A stretch of DNA of 64,000 nt from Candidatus Cloacimonadota bacterium (GTDB lineage: Bacteria > Cloacimonadota > Cloacimonadia > Cloacimonadales > TCS61), in contig JAIPGP010000005.1 of NCBI GenBank assembly GCA_021735645.1, positions 1,908 to 65,907 on the forward strand. Direction: 5' to 3'. Positions 40,110-48,708 of the stretch are shown here, piece by piece (the stretch's first letter is position 1; each line of letters starts with the position of its first letter). The position numbers and the translations under genes are program-made. Below the pieces are notes generated by a model. That model worked only from the letters and a program-made list of their open reading frames with translations, was not told the DNA's origin and searched no databases.

Positions 40110-40186
40110 AATTGTCCCCTTTCAGAAAAAAAATGCACCACAATTTCCCGAAGGAACAGTGTGGTGCCTATTTCTGTTTATCTGCT

Positions 40187-40435
40187 CTAATTTTCGTTAG
40201 TTGTCTCGTCTTCTTCTACTACTTCTTCTTCTTCTTCTTCCACTTTGTATTTCTTATTAAAACGCTCGATCCGACCTGCTTTCTGTACTGATCGCTGCTT
40301 GCCAGTATAGAAAGGATGGCATTTCTCACAAATCTGGACGTCAAGCTTATCTGACGTTGACTTCGTCTCAAATGTGTTACCACAAACACATCTCACGGTC
40401 ACTGTTTCATACTTCGGATGAATTTTATCTTTCAT
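40187..40435 (-). CDS. rpmE: 50S ribosomal protein L31 with an acidic C-terminal extension
   Basis: MKDKIHPKY...CVCGN...[12 protein letters not shown]. The internal ATG at 40435 gives the canonical start. The tail is [17 protein letters not shown]. Confidence 0.9.
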
Positions 40436-40583
40436 TGAGAACTCCTTTCTCGCTATATTCTTATCCAAATAACACTTTTTTTATCTTGCTCTCTTAATGT
40501 CAACTATTTTCCCAATAAATCTGATTTTGACAGATCATGACAGTTCAATTTTCTTAATATTCTCACTGCTCTACCATCAAAGG

Positions 40584-40628
40584 GTCTTATAGGTCTTATA
40601 GGGCTTATAGGGCTTATAGGGCTTATAG
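40584..40628. repeat. Five tandem 9-bp units (GKCTTATAG)
   Basis: GGTCTTATAG GTCTTATAG GGCTTATAG GGCTTATAG GGCTTATAG. Confidence 0.9.
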
Positions 40629-40775
40629 ATAATCAAAATAACGTCATTTAATCTGTAAAGAAGATTTTCGGCGAAGTGATTGAGGTAAATTCTGGCATCC
40701 CCCTGTTTTTTTTAGCAATTCATTATCTAATTGTCTGATATTATTGAGATTAAACACAATAATTTATATCTATCT

Positions 40776-40992
40776 AACCATTCTCATTAACACCAGATTT
40801 CAATCTGGTGCCCCTGATTAGAAGAAGTTCGCTAGTGGTTTCAACCACTTCATAAAATAGTGAATGCTCCAATTTGTCAACAATTATAATATTCCATAAT
40901 CACATATATTTATATAAGAAGTCACTGAAGTGACTACACTTCGTTCGTATATTTATACCACCAACTAAAGTTGGTGGTTAATGAGAATGGTT
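40776..40992. repeat. 217-bp element bounded by a perfect 16-bp inverted repeat and containing four hairpins (MITE-like element or structured RNA candidate)
   Basis: AACCATTCTCATTAAC (40776-40791) matches GTTAATGAGAATGGTT (40977-40992). Internal hairpins: CACCAGAT-ttca-ATCTGGTG (40791-40810), AGTGGTT-tc-AACCACT (40834-40849), AGTCAC-tgaa-GTGACT (40920-40935) and ACCACCAAC-taaa-GTTGGTGGT (40957-40978). Confidence 0.7.
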
Positions 40993-41057
40993 TTCAGATT
41001 AAATTAGAGATTACATATCGATGATAAATTTCGGGGGGATACCAGATTAAGCTAAAT

Positions 41058-44000
41058 TTGATTGACATGAAAATGAGTAAGGTTAAAAGACGAAATAAGG
41101 AAGGAAATGAAATGTTAAAAGATATAAATGAAAAATCAACAGCTTTGGAAAGTAATTTACGGGAGACAAACCGGGGCAGCAAAATTATTCCGGAAAAATA
41201 TCAGTGGCTGTTGTCTCAGTCAATTGGTAAAAAGGGTATAAATGAGCGTTGTAAGACTCTATTAGATGAGTATAATCATCCTTTTTCTAACCATAAAGTA
41301 GCAACAGAAGATCTGGTGCAGGTTGCTTTAAGTGATTTATGGTATTATGATCAGCTGCCTGAACGCCGGAGGATATATGAGTTGATATTAGGAATATTTT
41401 CTGATTTATTGCAGCGTTATATAGAAGTAGATATTCAAGACCGTCTGATTCAGACCCTGATTCGGTTTATTAGTAAGCTTGCTGAGCAGGATAACTATGA
41501 TCTGGTATCAATCCAGTCAGGTCTGGAGCTGATAAAAAACATCTATCGCAGTGATTCTATACTACTGGAGCGTAACAGCACTTATATCAAGAATAATTTC
41601 AAGGTTGTATATGAGATTCCGGAAATGAGAGAGGTTTGTCTGGATTATTGCCGTAAGTTATTAAGCGGAGTTTATTCACGCTGGCATGATTTACCGCAAT
41701 TAGAGGAATGGTATAAGGAAAAACAAGCACTTTTTGGAGAAGATTATCAGTCATTGATCCATGAGACGGGCAGGGAATTTATCGAATCTGAGCGAAAACG
41801 TCTGATGTCCATCAAGAATTGGGACGATGTCAGAGGAATGTCATTTTATGGTGATCTGGCTCAGAAATACCGGAGCCTGATTAGCCGCTTTGCGACCAGT
41901 CAGGAAAAGATTTATTATATTCTCTATTTATTTAAACTGGATGACATGTATCAGATGAGAAAGAGTTTATTGCTGGACTTGAACCGAACAATGCGTCGAG
42001 TGGGTGAAGAAATAGAATTAGAAGAGATGCAGAAATTTATGCAGGAAATATTTGGCTTGTTTGCAGAGCTAAAGGATAATTACCGCGAGACGGTTCTGGA
42101 CAGCATTTTATCATTGGGCAAGACGATAATAAGCTATGGCAATAAAGATTTACGACATTTATTCATAGATTTAGTGATCGGGCTGGGATTTGTCTCGCCA
42201 CGTGATGTAAAGATAGATAACGAGTGGCAGGTAGTGATAGACAGCAATCACATCAAGAATATCAGGGTATGGCTGCAGCTTGTGGAGCTGGACCCGATCG
42301 GGATGAACCGCTTGCTAAGTGCGCTTATTATAAATTTACGCGTAGGCGGTATATTTGTCTCTGATACGGATTTATTCCAAAAAGATATATCAAGGTTTCT
42401 GAGAGGAAATATTCAGCCTATCTTTAAACAAGTAAAGCAATTAGCCAGATTATTCCCTATTTATTATAATAAAATTGGGGCAGAAGGCGAATTACGGGAA
42501 TTGACAACAGCTATTGATGAGATGGGTCGCAGGCAGGACCGGCTGCTGCATTTTTTCCGCAAACAGGTTCACACTGAGAGCAATAATACTAACGTGGATC
42601 TGGCAAGGGATATACTGGAATACTGGGAGGGTGGTTATAGTGCGAAGGCGAAAACAACTCTACCAGATGATGTAAGAAAATTTATGAATACTGAAAATGA
42701 ATTTTATATTTTTAATCATCAGCTGGTGAAATTGTTGTGCGGGGAATATAAGTGCACGGTAATGGGTCTGGCAGAGCTGGATAGAAAAATCCTGGAGCGG
42801 TCCATAGATGAGAAACAGGAAATACCGGAGGTATACCGCCGGAAAGTGATGTATTTGATTCGGATTTATAATATTCTGCAGGAAAAGTATAGTTTTGGGA
42901 TAACAGATTTGGATAGTACCTTGCGGAAAAGCGGATTATGCGAAGAAAAGGATATCAAGTTATTGCTGGAATCATGGAAAGGTAAAAAATGGGCAGAGGC
43001 ATTGGAGAGTTTATTTGCGATCATGAAGAAGCTTGTGAAAGTAATATTTTCTTCAGAGCCTACAGAGGTGCGGGAAGACATCTATTATAAGCGTCATGTT
43101 GCTGCAGGGATACCTTCGATGTATGGCGAATACCGAGAGGCAAGGTTTGATGCCTTGGGCTTGATTTTCCGGCTGGAACAATTGGGTAAAGTGCTTTTGG
43201 AGAAAATTGAGAACAGAATAGACCTGATCTATTTCACCCATAAAACTCTGGAGCGGATTTATAGATTATTAAGGTTATATGAGACCGGATTGGAGATGGA
43301 TGGCATCAGTAATCCGGGATTCAGTTCCAATCTTGAGATGTTTCGCTATAGTCTGGAATCCAGCTTCACTTTGGATCAGTACCAGAACATTTTTCAGTTT
43401 CTGGCAGAGAATGCAAAGGAAATAGTGAAGGAATATTTTTACCGGATATATGAGCAGCCTTTGATGAAGATCACTGTGCAATATTTAGCAGAAGGCGGGA
43501 TAGAAGAGCGAATGCAGCAATCAGACCGCCTGTCGGAAAAATTTTACCGGGATGTTTTAACCTCGGCTTTTATTATCCAGAAGCTGGATAATTTTATCAT
43601 GACGCTCTTGAAATCTAACCGTGATATTGTCCAAAAATATGAAAAACAACACTTGATTATGCTCTTAAATTATGAGCCAGACCAGATAATGAGTCCGCTT
43701 TATTTATCTACTCCCGAGGTGGACAATCCGATATTTCTGGGTTCAAAGGCATATTTCTTGAAAGTAATGCTGGAAAAGGGATTTCCCATTCCACCAGGAT
43801 TTGTGCTTTCTACAGAGCTGTTCCGGCACCGTCCACTGGTTCTGCTTGAGGGTGCCTTTCGCACAGATATCTTGAATAAGATACGTAAGCAGGTGAAAAG
43901 ATTGCAGAGCCTGGCAGGCAGAAAGTTTGGTGACCCGGCAAATCCGATGTTACTAAGTGTGCGTTCCGGTACAGCGATTTCGATGCCGGGAGCGATGAAT

Positions 44001-45212
44001 ACTTTTTTAAATGTGGGAATGAATGATGAAATTGCTGAAGAGATGAGTAAGCAGAAAGGTATGGGCTGGACTGCCTGGGATTCTTACCGGCGTTTATTGC
44101 AGAGCTGGGGAATGGCGCAAAAAATTGAGCGGGATAAATTTGATGAGATCATTCAGGGTTATAAAACGGAGTTTGGGATTGCGATGAAGCAGAACCTGAG
44201 CACTGAGCAGATGAAACGGATTGCCCTGGCATATAAGAAAAAGATTCTGGATTGCGGAAAAGAATTTATCGATGATCCTTTTGAGCAGCTGTTTAAGGCT
44301 ATTGGATATGTGCTGGACAGCTGGGGCTCAGATCGCGCTTTGGTATATCGGGAGCAAATGCAGATAGCACATGAATGGGGAACTGCTGTTGTAGTTCAAC
44401 AAATGGTGATGGGTAATATGAGCGAGAATTCGGGGACTGGTGTCCTTTTTACCCATGACCCGGCAAGTAATGAACCAGGCTTAAAGCTCTATGGTGAATA
44501 CACTGTGTGCAGTCAGGGAGAAGATGTAGTTGCCGGACTGGTGAATGTGAAACCCTTAACCCGCCAGCAAGGTAAAGTCTTAAGCGATAATGGCAATGAC
44601 AGCCTGGAAGCAAAACTGCCGCTGATTTTTAATCGCTTAAATGAACTGGCAGCAAAAATGATCTATGACCATGGTTTCAGCCACCAGGAAATAGAATTTA
44701 CTTTTGAGTCTGAGAATCCGGAAGATTTATATATCCTGCAGACCCGGAATCAGGACATTCAAACTAAGCGGGACTTCAAGATATTTTCTGCCAAGCGGGA
44801 AGAAATGGTATTTGCCGGTAGCGGCATAGGCATAGGTGGCGGAGCATTGAACGGGATTTTAGCCTTTAATGAAGATGATTTGCATACTTACCGTCAGCAG
44901 TATCCGGATATGGCAATGATCTTAGTCCGCCCCGATACGGTTCCAGATGATATCGGCATGATCTTTAAATGTGATGGCTTGATCACGGGTAGAGGTGGAG
45001 CAACCTCTCATGCAGCTGTAACAGCAGTGAGGCTGGGTATAGTGTGTATAGTAAATTGCCGGCAACTGGTTGTTGATGAAGAGAAAAAATGTTGTCAAAT
45101 CCTTGATAAAAAACTGTTTAGCGGAGATAAAGTGGCGATTGATGGTCATTTTGGGAATATCTATATCGGTAATTATGATGTGCAAACGGAAAGGATGTCT
45201 TATCAGGGATAG
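41058..45212 (+). CDS. 1384-aa protein: ~870-aa unrecognised N-terminal region fused to a PPDK-type ATP-grasp nucleotide-binding domain and swivel phosphohistidine domain; no PEP/pyruvate TIM barrel
   Basis: The C-terminal ~510 aa are colinear with PPDK: FGDPANPMLLSVRSGTAISMPGAMNTFLNVGMND, YRRLLQSWG, GTAVVVQQMVMGN, SGTGVLFTHDP, QGEDVVAGL, QEIEFTFE..LYILQTRN, ILVRPDTVPDDIGMI, GLITGRGGATSHAAVTAVRLG. The start is uncertain: TTG at 41058, or ATG at 41112, which follows AGGAAGGA. Confidence 0.8.
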   Translation: MIDMKMSKVKRRNKEGNEMLKDINEKSTALESNLRETNRGSKIIPEKYQWLLSQSIGKKGINERCKTLLDEYNHPFSNHKVATEDLVQVALSDLWYYDQLPERRRIYELILGIFSDLLQRYIEVDIQDRLIQTLIRFISKLAEQDNYDLVSIQSGLELIKNIYRSDSILLERNSTYIKNNFKVVYEIPEMREVCLDYCRKLLSGVYSRWHDLPQLEEWYKEKQALFGEDYQSLIHETGREFIESERKRLMSIKNWDDVRGMSFYGDLAQKYRSLISRFATSQEKIYYILYLFKLDDMYQMRKSLLLDLNRTMRRVGEEIELEEMQKFMQEIFGLFAELKDNYRETVLDSILSLGKTIISYGNKDLRHLFIDLVIGLGFVSPRDVKIDNEWQVVIDSNHIKNIRVWLQLVELDPIGMNRLLSALIINLRVGGIFVSDTDLFQKDISRFLRGNIQPIFKQVKQLARLFPIYYNKIGAEGELRELTTAIDEMGRRQDRLLHFFRKQVHTESNNTNVDLARDILEYWEGGYSAKAKTTLPDDVRKFMNTENEFYIFNHQLVKLLCGEYKCTVMGLAELDRKILERSIDEKQEIPEVYRRKVMYLIRIYNILQEKYSFGITDLDSTLRKSGLCEEKDIKLLLESWKGKKWAEALESLFAIMKKLVKVIFSSEPTEVREDIYYKRHVAAGIPSMYGEYREARFDALGLIFRLEQLGKVLLEKIENRIDLIYFTHKTLERIYRLLRLYETGLEMDGISNPGFSSNLEMFRYSLESSFTLDQYQNIFQFLAENAKEIVKEYFYRIYEQPLMKITVQYLAEGGIEERMQQSDRLSEKFYRDVLTSAFIIQKLDNFIMTLLKSNRDIVQKYEKQHLIMLLNYEPDQIMSPLYLSTPEVDNPIFLGSKAYFLKVMLEKGFPIPPGFVLSTELFRHRPLVLLEGAFRTDILNKIRKQVKRLQSLAGRKFGDPANPMLLSVRSGTAISMPGAMNTFLNVGMNDEIAEEMSKQKGMGWTAWDSYRRLLQSWGMAQKIERDKFDEIIQGYKTEFGIAMKQNLSTEQMKRIALAYKKKILDCGKEFIDDPFEQLFKAIGYVLDSWGSDRALVYREQMQIAHEWGTAVVVQQMVMGNMSENSGTGVLFTHDPASNEPGLKLYGEYTVCSQGEDVVAGLVNVKPLTRQQGKVLSDNGNDSLEAKLPLIFNRLNELAAKMIYDHGFSHQEIEFTFESENPEDLYILQTRNQDIQTKRDFKIFSAKREEMVFAGSGIGIGGGALNGILAFNEDDLHTYRQQYPDMAMILVRPDTVPDDIGMIFKCDGLITGRGGATSHAAVTAVRLGIVCIVNCRQLVVDEEKKCCQILDKKLFSGDKVAIDGHFGNIYIGNYDVQTERMSYQG

Positions 45213-45287
45213 AATATTCATTGACAGAAAAAGTATGGTATTATAATTAATAGGTAATAAAAATCGAATACATTAAGGAGAATTCTA

Positions 45288-46520
45288 ATGGGAAATATCT
45301 TAGGTATCAATGGTTTAGGTAGAATAGGTAAACTTACCCTCTGGAATCATATTGCCTTAGACCATTTTGATGGATATGTGATCAATGTGGGCAGAGAAAT
45401 AGGTAATAGCCTGGATGATTTTATCAGGACAATAGAATCCGATTCCACTTATGGTCACATAGACCGTTTTTTATATGGTGCATCAGGTAAAAAAGCTCAG
45501 ATCGAAATTATCAATGAAAAACAGGGACTACTGAAAATCAATGGCAAAAAAGTCTGGGTGCTGCGTAAAGAACGTAATCCATTGAATTTGCCCTGGAATG
45601 AGATGGGCGTCCGATTAGTAGTGGATTGCACGGGAGTGTTTCTTGACCCTACCGTGCCAGTGGATAATCCCAGGGGCAGCGTGCGGGGGCATCTGGAAGC
45701 CGGAGCGGAAAAAGTATTATGTTCGGCTCCTTTCAAGATCAAAGACAAAGCTCTCAGCATGCCGGAAGATAGTAAACTATTTGTCTATGGTGTCAATCAT
45801 CATGATTATAACCCCAGCCAGCATAATATTCTTTCAGCAGCCAGTTGCACAACTACCGGGCTGGCTCACATGATGATGCCGCTGCTGGAAAATGAGGCAG
45901 CATCTAAAATAGTGACAGCTTCCATGTCCACAATTCATGCCTCCACCAGTACGCAAAGCATCCTGGACAGCGTTCCTAAAGCCGGAGCAAAAGACTTGAG
46001 AAAAAACCGCTCTATTATGAATAATATAATTCTTACTTCTACCGGAGCAGCTAAGGCTCTGGAACAGATACTGCCACAAATCAAAGATATCGGGTTCATG
46101 GCAGACAGCGTTCGCATACCTACTAATACAGTATCAATGATCAGCTTGAATATCACTTTCCATGAGCAAATGAATGAAAAATTAGAGCCTGTGATCAATG
46201 GTGAATTTCTGAATAATATCTACCGCGCTGCTGAAAAAAATAAACAAAAAGGACTGCTGGTCTTCAGCGAAAGACAAAATGTTTCCAGCGATCTGATCGG
46301 GATACGGGCAGCAGTAGTGATTGAGGGTAACGATACTCATACCAGGACGGGATTCTTGAAGCTGAATAGTGTCATGCTGCAAGAACTGGGACTTAATGCC
46401 AAAGACAATATCTCACTGCCGGTTACCCATGCCAAAATTTTTGGCTGGTATGATAATGAGTTTGGCAGCTATGTGAATATGCTGGGTAAATTAACCTTGC
46501 ATGTTGATGAAAACTTATAG
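45288..46520 (+). CDS. Divergent, long (410 aa) glyceraldehyde-3-phosphate dehydrogenase family protein
   Basis: INGLGRIGK (NAD fold), SAASCTTTGLAHMM (catalytic Cys), STIHASTSTQ (His), NIILTSTGAAKAL, RIPTNTVSM, WYDNEFGSY. It is about 75 aa longer than classical GapA. Confidence 0.75.
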   Translation: MGNILGINGLGRIGKLTLWNHIALDHFDGYVINVGREIGNSLDDFIRTIESDSTYGHIDRFLYGASGKKAQIEIINEKQGLLKINGKKVWVLRKERNPLNLPWNEMGVRLVVDCTGVFLDPTVPVDNPRGSVRGHLEAGAEKVLCSAPFKIKDKALSMPEDSKLFVYGVNHHDYNPSQHNILSAASCTTTGLAHMMMPLLENEAASKIVTASMSTIHASTSTQSILDSVPKAGAKDLRKNRSIMNNIILTSTGAAKALEQILPQIKDIGFMADSVRIPTNTVSMISLNITFHEQMNEKLEPVINGEFLNNIYRAAEKNKQKGLLVFSERQNVSSDLIGIRAAVVIEGNDTHTRTGFLKLNSVMLQELGLNAKDNISLPVTHAKIFGWYDNEFGSYVNMLGKLTLHVDENL

Positions 46521-46725
46521 CAGAATGTAGCGTAATGCAGTTAAATGTATTATATGGGAGGTAGATAAAAAAGCGGAGATAAAAAAAATTGACAGATCGG
46601 GAAGTGAGAAATTACTGACCCTAAAGTTAATAAAGGATTTTATATGGTGTTTAATTCCGCAGATAAGACGGGAATAATGATGAAGGTAGAGAGCACGATA
46701 ATTGCTCTTGAAAGCATAAATCATA

Positions 46726-46760
46726 AAGCATTCACTCTCAAGGTGGATGCTTTTTTTGTT
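46726..46760 (+). terminator. Hairpin plus T-run immediately upstream of nadC (terminator of the upstream unit, or an attenuator)
   Basis: AAGCATTCAC / GTGGATGCTT (one G-T pair) followed by TTTTTTTGTTTT. It ends 12 nt before the nadC ATG. Confidence 0.5.
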
Positions 46761-48316: not shown

Positions 48317-48708
48317 CTGTCGGAGAGGATCATATATCTGCTGTCCCGCTTGCGGGAGAGAGGAAAGTCCGAACACCAAAGGGCAGGATACTTCTTAACT
48401 GGAAGTCCTTGTGAAGGGGAGCTAGCTCCACAGAAACAAACCGCCGAAAGGTAAGGGTGAAATGGCAGAGTAAGAGCCTGCCAGATTCTGACGTGAGTCA
48501 GAATGCTCGGAAAGCCTTATCCGGTGCAATGCCAAATAGGGAAGCAGTCTTCGGACCCGGATTTGCCCGATCCGGTTTGCTTTCGGGTAGGCAGCTTAAG
48601 CCGGCTTAAATGTCCCGGTTGGGAATAGCAATATTCGGCTTAGAGAAATAGATGTATGATCACTTGTTAGGTGATTAACAGAATTCGGCTTATGACCGTC
48701 TCCGACAG
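48317..48708 (+). ncRNA. rnpB: RNase P RNA, bacterial type A
   Basis: P1 pairing of CTGTCGGAGA (48317-48326) with TCTCCGACAG (48699-48708). Conserved blocks: AGGAAAGTCCGAAC (48361-48374), ACAGAAACAAACCGCC, GGTAAGGGTGAAA, and ACAGAATTCGGCTTA (48678-48692). Confidence 0.92.

Follow-up and report, generated by a model that had tools for sequence, protein, structure and literature searches.

A PPDK-derived half-dikinase with a conserved N-terminal helical domain, encoded beside a GAPDH paralogue in Candidatus Cloacimonadota

A 64,000-nucleotide stretch of DNA from a Candidatus Cloacimonadota bacterium (contig JAIPGP010000005.1 of assembly GCA_021735645.1; the whole stretch is hereafter called the window) carries a long open reading frame (ORF) related to pyruvate phosphate dikinase (PPDK) and, directly downstream on the same strand, a gene for a paralogue of glyceraldehyde-3-phosphate dehydrogenase (GAPDH). 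The locus raises the question of what a dikinase acts on when the domain that would bind phosphoenolpyruvate (PEP) and pyruvate is missing, and of what the adjoining GAPDH contributes. We class the large protein as a dikinase derived from the PEP-utilizing enzymes that has a novel putative substrate domain and a GAPDH partner of its own. We describe its domains, the GAPDH genes that accompany it across relatives, and the chemistry that the pair might carry out.

The dikinase-like protein and its N-terminal domain

The C-terminal part of the protein is the part that can be recognised. A Pfam search of the 1384-aa ORF places PPDK_N (PF01326) at residues 936–1166 (E 1e-30) and the PEP-utilizers mobile domain (PF00391) at residues 1287–1364 (E 5e-16); the PEP/pyruvate TIM barrel (PF02896) is absent from the protein in the same search. 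Positions 17–346 of the NCBIfam profile for PPDK (TIGR01828) match residues 893–1242 with 366 bits, below the 843-bit cut-off, and in profile and PDB searches the matches to PPDK structures, PDB 1kbl among them, are limited to residues 877–1220 and 1235–1356. In a pairwise alignment, residues 946–1384 are 34% identical to residues 18–495 of the PPDK encoded elsewhere in the same genome. The ATP-grasp motifs agree with those of this canonical enzyme, nothing beyond a PPDK-like linker is inserted between the ATP-grasp and phosphohistidine domains, and the ORF ends directly after the latter, at the equivalent of PPDK residue ~495. The motif GRGGATSHAAV, which contains the predicted phosphohistidine His1318, is invariant in 16 diverse homologues.

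These results bear out a preliminary description of the locus, made from the DNA letters alone, which had read the C-terminal part (~510 residues there, ~520 by the present analysis) as the ATP-grasp and swivelling His domains of PPDK in colinear order and the ORF as stopping where the PEP/pyruvate TIM barrel would start, and which had expected matches to PF01326 and PF00391, none to PF02896 and none in residues 1–870. Judged by its sequence, the large protein is a PPDK-derived ATP-grasp and His-swivel 'half-dikinase' without a PEP/pyruvate domain. Its start is probably the in-frame ATG of Met19 and not the TTG that opens the ORF, because an identical 1366-aa cluster member, an ESM Atlas record and the relatives all begin there.

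The residues N-terminal to the ATP-grasp domain make up the larger part of the chain. Residues 1–870 match no Pfam, NCBIfam or PHROG family, and a profile built from the family alignment matches no PDB entry in this region. Across 120 homologues this region is ~40% identical to the query, and the alignment holds a long series of invariant residues: H398, N401, D436-T437-D438-L439-F440-Q441, R480, T484, D487, E488, R492, D494, R501, K502, H505, E507 and N509, and further towards the ATP-grasp domain E673, Y676, K678-R679-H680 and G684-I685-P686-S687-Y689-G690. An invariant basic and acidic cluster in the same alignment comprises H398, K400, R403, D436–Q441, R480, D487, E488, R492, D494, H505, E507 and K678-R679-H680.

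The AlphaFold2 model of residues 1–870, computed at a depth of 120 sequences (mean pLDDT 84, pTM 0.73), is nearly all helical, with one long β-hairpin (residues 672–693) that carries the invariant KRH...GIPSxYG residues. For this model, Foldseek returns just weak helical-repeat look-alikes of the HEAT/ARM kind (karyopherins and CAND1, TM 0.12–0.18); VIA-align against all PDB clusters reaches Z ≤ 10.5, for designed helical repeats, a score that is uninformative for helices; and structure and feature searches of the ESM Atlas recover same-family clusters only. The middle domain (residues 370–720), modelled separately (pLDDT 84.5), has no Foldseek match and a best VIA Z of 6.0, below the meaningful threshold. 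The preliminary description had called these ~870 residues mostly helical, as the model bears out, and unrecognisable. The latter term holds in that neither a family nor a solved fold that would explain the protein was found in these searches, but the region is not noise: it represents a domain family whose sequence is highly conserved, with basic and acidic positions that do not vary, and its fold, as modelled, gave no meaningful match to a solved structure. A role in binding a substrate or a partner is probable from this pattern of conservation.

A homologue search found 1485 homologues of the dikinase-like protein, which are full length at ~1360 aa and have an N-terminal region without a Pfam match; the pair of PPDK_N and PEP-utilizers domains is present in 120 of the 120 listed. 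They come from Cloacimonadota, Bacteroidota, Clostridia, Deltaproteobacteria/Geobacter, Chloroflexota and Dehalococcoidia, and a scan of one genome per species places relatives in 574 species genomes, mostly those of anaerobes, in many phyla. The dikinase/GAPDH module is not peculiar to the host genome, and the family is widespread in anaerobes. Literature searches on the family, and on the pairing of PPDK with GAPDH, found no characterisation of either.

Partner GAPDHs and the conserved gene pair

Gene neighbourhoods were surveyed at 80 loci of relatives from 80 different species. A GAPDH paralogue directly adjoins the dikinase gene at 71 of the 80, usually 15–250 bp away, where adjacency by chance would be ~0.2% (~2–3 GAPDH genes per genome of ~3000 genes), and no conserved neighbour other than GAPDH was found near the dikinase gene at these loci. 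In a tree, the partner GAPDHs fall into three lineages. Lineage A, to which the protein of the window belongs, consists of ~415-aa proteins encoded codirectionally downstream of the dikinase; it is monophyletic (100% SH-aLRT), sits on a very long branch and is ~30% identical to canonical GAPDH. The ~335-aa proteins of lineage B are encoded codirectionally upstream, in Bacteroidota, Ignavibacteria and one Cloacimonadota metagenome-assembled genome (MAG), and those of lineage C, also ~335 aa, are encoded upstream in divergent orientation, in Bacteroidales.

The type of partner tracks the clades of the dikinase tree; the pairing has been kept while a non-orthologous GAPDH was swapped in, and in some Bacteroidota an A and a B partner flank a single dikinase gene. 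Each of five relative genomes encodes a canonical GAPDH to which the partner comes as an additional paralogue, and the B- and C-type partners are distinct from the main GAPDH of each genome. Because GAPDH partners have been recruited repeatedly (A, B and C), the pairing would reflect a functional need rather than inherited synteny. That recruitment happened more than once is, from gene order and trees, the best reason to think that the dikinase and the GAPDH work together. The two-gene module that the preliminary description had proposed from one locus is strongly supported, with neighbours that stay together in related genomes and a pairing that survives replacement by two other GAPDH lineages; the A-type proteins form a separate long-branched clade and are not ordinary glycolytic GapA.

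The A-type partner in the window scores 312.9 bits with the NCBIfam profile for type I GAPDH (TIGR01534), below its cut-off of 367.2. Its substrate- and phosphate-site residues (the equivalents of T179, T208/G209 and R231) are kept. Since the catalytic Cys, the His and the phosphate-site residues are kept in partners of all types, the partner GAPDHs are probably active phosphorylating dehydrogenases. Loss of the NAD-specific Asp32 is confined to the A-type, where it is replaced by V, A or T in 53 of 53 partners and an Arg stands adjacent, a change that suggests altered, possibly NADP, cofactor use. The additional ~75–80 aa of the A-type are spread over six separate insertions along the chain, the largest of which (~24 aa) lies immediately N-terminal to the nicotinamide-binding WYDNE motif. 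Of the earlier account of this protein, the NAD fold, the retained Cys/His pair and the excess length, given there as about 75 aa, stand, whereas the divergence ascribed to its substrate-binding region does not: as the alignment indicates, the changed parts of the A-type are the cofactor site and surface loops, not the substrate site.

No terminator was found in the 75-nt spacer between the dikinase and GAPDH genes. Because of this short spacing and of a terminator-like hairpin solely after the GAPDH gene, the pair appears operon-like, consistent with a two-gene operon read as one transcript. The features of the locus are collected in Table 1.

Table 1. Coordinates of the dikinase/GAPDH locus within the window
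Feature	Position	Strand	Remarks
Intergenic stretch, ~950 bp	40110-41057		5' of the large ORF
Tandem array, TCT repeat	40209-40240		in the intergenic region 5' of the large ORF
Tandem array, 9-bp unit AGGGCTTAT ×5	40581-40628		in the intergenic region 5' of the large ORF
Large dikinase-like ORF	41058..45212	+	1384 aa from TTG
Likely true start, in-frame ATG (M19)	41112	+	1366-aa product
Conserved alpha-helical N-terminal domain, residues ~19-860	41112..43637	+	conserved in 120 homologues; AlphaFold2 model mostly helical
Invariant motif DTDLFQ, residues 436-441	42363..42380	+	120-homologue alignment
Invariant beta-hairpin, residues 672-693, with E673, Y676, K678-R679-H680 and GIPSxYG	43072..43137	+	candidate active or binding site; alignment and models
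PPDK-type ATP-grasp nucleotide-binding domain, residues ~893-1242	43734..44784	+	TIGR01828, PF01326; aligns to PPDK 18-311; 1kbl match
Swivelling phosphohistidine domain, residues 1287-1364	44917..45150	+	PF00391
Codon of predicted catalytic phosphohistidine His1318, in GRGGATSHAAV	45009..45011	+	motif invariant in the family
Partner GAPDH paralogue, A-type, 410 aa	45288..46520	+	75 nt 3' of the large ORF
Cofactor-site stretch VINVGRE of the GAPDH paralogue	45381..45401	+	canonical AINDLTD, with NAD-specific Asp32, lost in all A-type partners
Codon of predicted catalytic Cys187, GAPDH paralogue	45846..45848	+	invariant in all partner GAPDHs
Codon of predicted catalytic His217, GAPDH paralogue	45936..45938	+	alignment
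Terminator-like hairpin	46725..46753	+	3' of the GAPDH gene

The host genome (3.77 Mb in 151 contigs, 95% complete) also encodes a full-length PPDK of its own (TIGR01828, 1262 bits) and a canonical GAPDH (438.7 bits, above the TIGR01534 cut-off), so that, on a point which the preliminary description had left to be checked, the partner is not the sole GAPDH. PtsI and phosphoglycerate kinase (PGK) are encoded as well. In the host genome (locus L085) and its closest relative the only PGK is a divergent-scoring one (~270–280 bits), and two Bacteroidota genomes (G003 and G004) carry two PGK genes each, a canonical and a divergent one.

At ~41% GC the window is GC-poor, and its genes are densely packed; its nearest relatives are Cloacimonadota MAGs. 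The pair is flanked by unrelated housekeeping genes (DUF1385, release factor, CNNM, NadC, CT398-like and RecJ), none of which recurs near the dikinase genes of the relatives. The intergenic region upstream of the dikinase gene had been described as an unusual, repeat-rich spacer of 590 bp. It is in fact ~950 bp long and unremarkable: it has no Rfam match, and scans for promoters, terminators and repeats gave only two short tandem arrays, for which reason the spacer was dropped as part of the finding. A bacterial RNase P RNA (class A) gene at 48322-48500 of the window (+), an ordinary housekeeping RNA, has a score of 108.9 bits, where the gathering threshold is 100, in a match cut by the end of the query. 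Near the module in relatives, at 11 of the 80 loci, lies a gene for a translation GTPase of 595 aa whose N-terminus is SelB-like (GTAGHIDHGKTTL), once in Cloacimonadota (L005) and in ~10 Bacteroidales (L050, L059, L060, L069, L076, L078, L079, L080, L083 and L084); this may reflect a selenoprotein context in some lineages.

A possible reaction for the dikinase/GAPDH pair

The domains, the catalytic residues, the conserved operon-like arrangement of the pair and the recurrent recruitment of GAPDH are observed, and from them we infer a chemistry, a substrate and a direction. The reading that we favour, with a rough probability of 0.4, is a His-phosphoryl transferase, driven by ATP, whose substrate sits on its own N-terminal domain and which is coupled to the GAPDH paralogue, probably via an acyl-phosphate. 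The ATP-grasp domain would use ATP to phosphorylate or pyrophosphorylate His1318, releasing AMP and pyrophosphate (PPi) or phosphate (Pi) in the manner of PPDK. Next, the His domain would swing to the substrate on the N-terminal helical domain, which would stand in for the PEP/pyruvate barrel of PPDK: without a PEP/pyruvate domain, the substrate has to be bound in another part of the protein, for which the N-terminal domain is the sole conserved candidate. The basic and acidic residues that are invariant in it could together make a pocket for an anion.

The GAPDH paralogue would, in turn, serve as a phosphorylating aldehyde dehydrogenase on the same metabolite, and the pair would most probably interconvert a carboxylate, an acyl-phosphate and an aldehyde. 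In the reductive direction, the two steps would be R-COO- + ATP -> R-CO-OPO3 + AMP (+PPi or Pi) and R-CO-OPO3 + NAD(P)H -> R-CHO + Pi, as in the conversion of 3-phosphoglycerate via 1,3-bisphosphoglycerate to glyceraldehyde-3-phosphate in gluconeogenesis. In the oxidative direction, aldehyde oxidation would conserve energy as ATP made from AMP and PPi. We put forward only tentatively, as the less probable and more specific proposal, that the pair is a two-component ATP-to-AMP carboxylate reductase, in which the dikinase makes the acyl-phosphate and the GAPDH reduces it, or the reverse system making ATP from AMP and PPi. If this were true for 3-phosphoglycerate, it would be a PPi-linked alternative to the PGK/GAPDH step across anaerobic phyla. 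Most members of the family appear to belong to anaerobes whose central metabolism is PPi-linked, which would fit an AMP/PPi-linked step.

Several points weigh against the acyl-phosphate coupling. PGK (in the host genome and five relative genomes, 6/6) and canonical GAPDH are present in every genome examined, so the module adds to glycolysis and does not replace it; a role as a substitute for PGK was rejected on these grounds. Some genomes have a dikinase gene without an adjacent GAPDH, for example that of Acetobacterium wieringae DSM 1911, a cultured strain (locus L036), and in the two Bacteroidota genomes G003 and G004 (loci L100 and L101) an A-type GAPDH gene lies away from the dikinase gene. 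There the dikinase itself is paired with a B-type GAPDH, and in L100 the A-type gene comes after a nucleotidyltransferase gene. For a small carboxylate (3-phosphoglycerate, for example), an all-helical domain of ~860 aa is also very large, and it equally could be a scaffold for binding a protein or polymer; moreover, the favoured reading requires that the His domain can reach a site on it.

The genomic coupling of dikinase and GAPDH would also fit a dikinase that supplies the substrate of the GAPDH, its His domain phosphorylating the hydroxyl of an aldehyde compound (glyceraldehyde to glyceraldehyde-3-phosphate, or another aldose or glycolaldehyde to its phosphate) and the GAPDH paralogue oxidising the resulting aldehyde-phosphate. 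The substrate-phosphate site kept in the partner GAPDHs implies that their substrate is probably a phosphorylated aldehyde, and there is general precedent in the rifampicin phosphotransferase and the glucan water dikinase, dikinases that phosphorylate alcohols. We nevertheless consider this route unlikely, as a simple aldehyde kinase needs no helical domain of 860 aa; the conserved residues fit hydroxyl and carboxylate targets equally. In a further reading, a macromolecule (a protein, possibly the GAPDH, or a polymer) would be the ligand of the N-terminal helical solenoid, and the His domain would act on this bound partner or relay a phosphoryl group to it, in a regulatory manner or like the phosphotransferase system (PTS). 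The pairing with GAPDH would then reflect regulation or a metabolon, not a shared small metabolite. The only structural matches, weak as they are, are to HEAT/ARM-like helical-repeat scaffolds, which typically bind proteins, and the conserved gene pairing is again compatible, but the many charged invariant residues look more like a catalytic pocket than a protein surface, and we give this possibility a low probability. A complex prediction for the middle domain with an A-type GAPDH gave an ipSAE of 0.00, which speaks neither for nor against binding.

By far the least probable explanation is that the large gene is a decaying, non-functional fragment of a PPDK gene fused to an unrelated domain, as the missing PEP/pyruvate domain and the full PPDK elsewhere in the genome might suggest. 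The length of ~1360 aa is conserved among the 1485 relatives in many phyla, the N-terminal domain is strongly conserved, the catalytic motifs are intact and a GAPDH partner is retained, all of which is unlike a pseudogene; these conservation data, drawn from sequence comparison, refute decay in practice.

Returning to the favoured reading, of a His-phosphoryl transferase coupled to its GAPDH partner, the tie to GAPDH points to a shared, unrecognised metabolic step beside the glycolytic GAPDH/PGK node, or to the reduction of a carboxylate to an aldehyde, and the recurrence of the module in anaerobes speaks for a step of central metabolism, as yet uncharacterised, in which ATP and a phosphohistidine are used. 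If this reading is true, the module would define a new class of dikinase substrate, possibly with a PPi/AMP-linked route of lower glycolysis or carboxylate reduction in anaerobes, and a large uncharacterised domain family would be opened to structural biology.

Comparison with known dikinases and GAPDHs

The partner GAPDHs resemble type I GAPDH (GapA; TIGR01534) and the gluconeogenic NADP-dependent enzyme (GapB) in their NAD(P)-binding and catalytic domains, the Cys/His pair and the phosphate sites. The A-type partners differ: they are long-branched, are ~30% identical to canonical GAPDH, contain insertions that total ~80 aa and have lost Asp32.

To our knowledge, the PEP-utilizing dikinases are few, namely PPDK, PEP synthase (PpsA), rifampicin phosphotransferase (RPH), the glucan water dikinases and the PigC/RedH ligases. 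Like PPDK (TIGR01828; Clostridium symbiosum, PDB 1KBL), the large protein has the homologous ATP-grasp and swivelling His domains and the phosphorylatable His within GGxTSHAAV; unlike PPDK, it has no PF02896 TIM barrel, carries an ~860-aa helical domain before the ATP-grasp domain and scores below the PPDK cut-off. By its missing barrel and its whole-protein score, it is not a PPDK. The order of domains differs as well: the putative substrate domain comes first here, followed by ATP-grasp and His domains, whereas PPDK and PpsA run from ATP-grasp through His domain to barrel.

In RPH, the order is ATP-grasp, substrate domain and His domain. The two proteins share descent from PEP-utilizing enzymes, a dedicated substrate domain, a proposed target other than PEP and a C-terminal His domain; here, however, the presumed substrate domain is N-terminal, no domain lies between ATP-grasp and His domains, and there is no antibiotic context. 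The match to the RPH profile (NF041857) is weak, at 31.8 bits against a cut-off of 999, and confined to the ATP-grasp region. PigC and RedH (prodigiosin and undecylprodigiosin ligases; NF052631 and NF052632) are PEP-synthase-derived, ATP-dependent phosphotransferases that likewise act on a substrate other than PEP; they match the protein weakly and in the ATP-grasp region only, and the locus holds no biosynthetic cluster. Their domain order was rejected as a model, since the ATP-grasp domain lies near the N-terminus in their NCBIfam profiles.

Large N-terminal domains that serve a target other than PEP and feed a His-swivel dikinase are also found in alpha-glucan water dikinase (GWD) and phosphoglucan water dikinase. 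GWD has N-terminal carbohydrate-binding modules (CBMs), then the His domain and a C-terminal ATP-grasp domain; here, Pfam finds no CBM match, and the His domain follows the ATP-grasp domain. Each new substrate domain in this group of enzymes has come with a chemistry that was new, ranging from the inactivation of antibiotics to the phosphorylation of starch.

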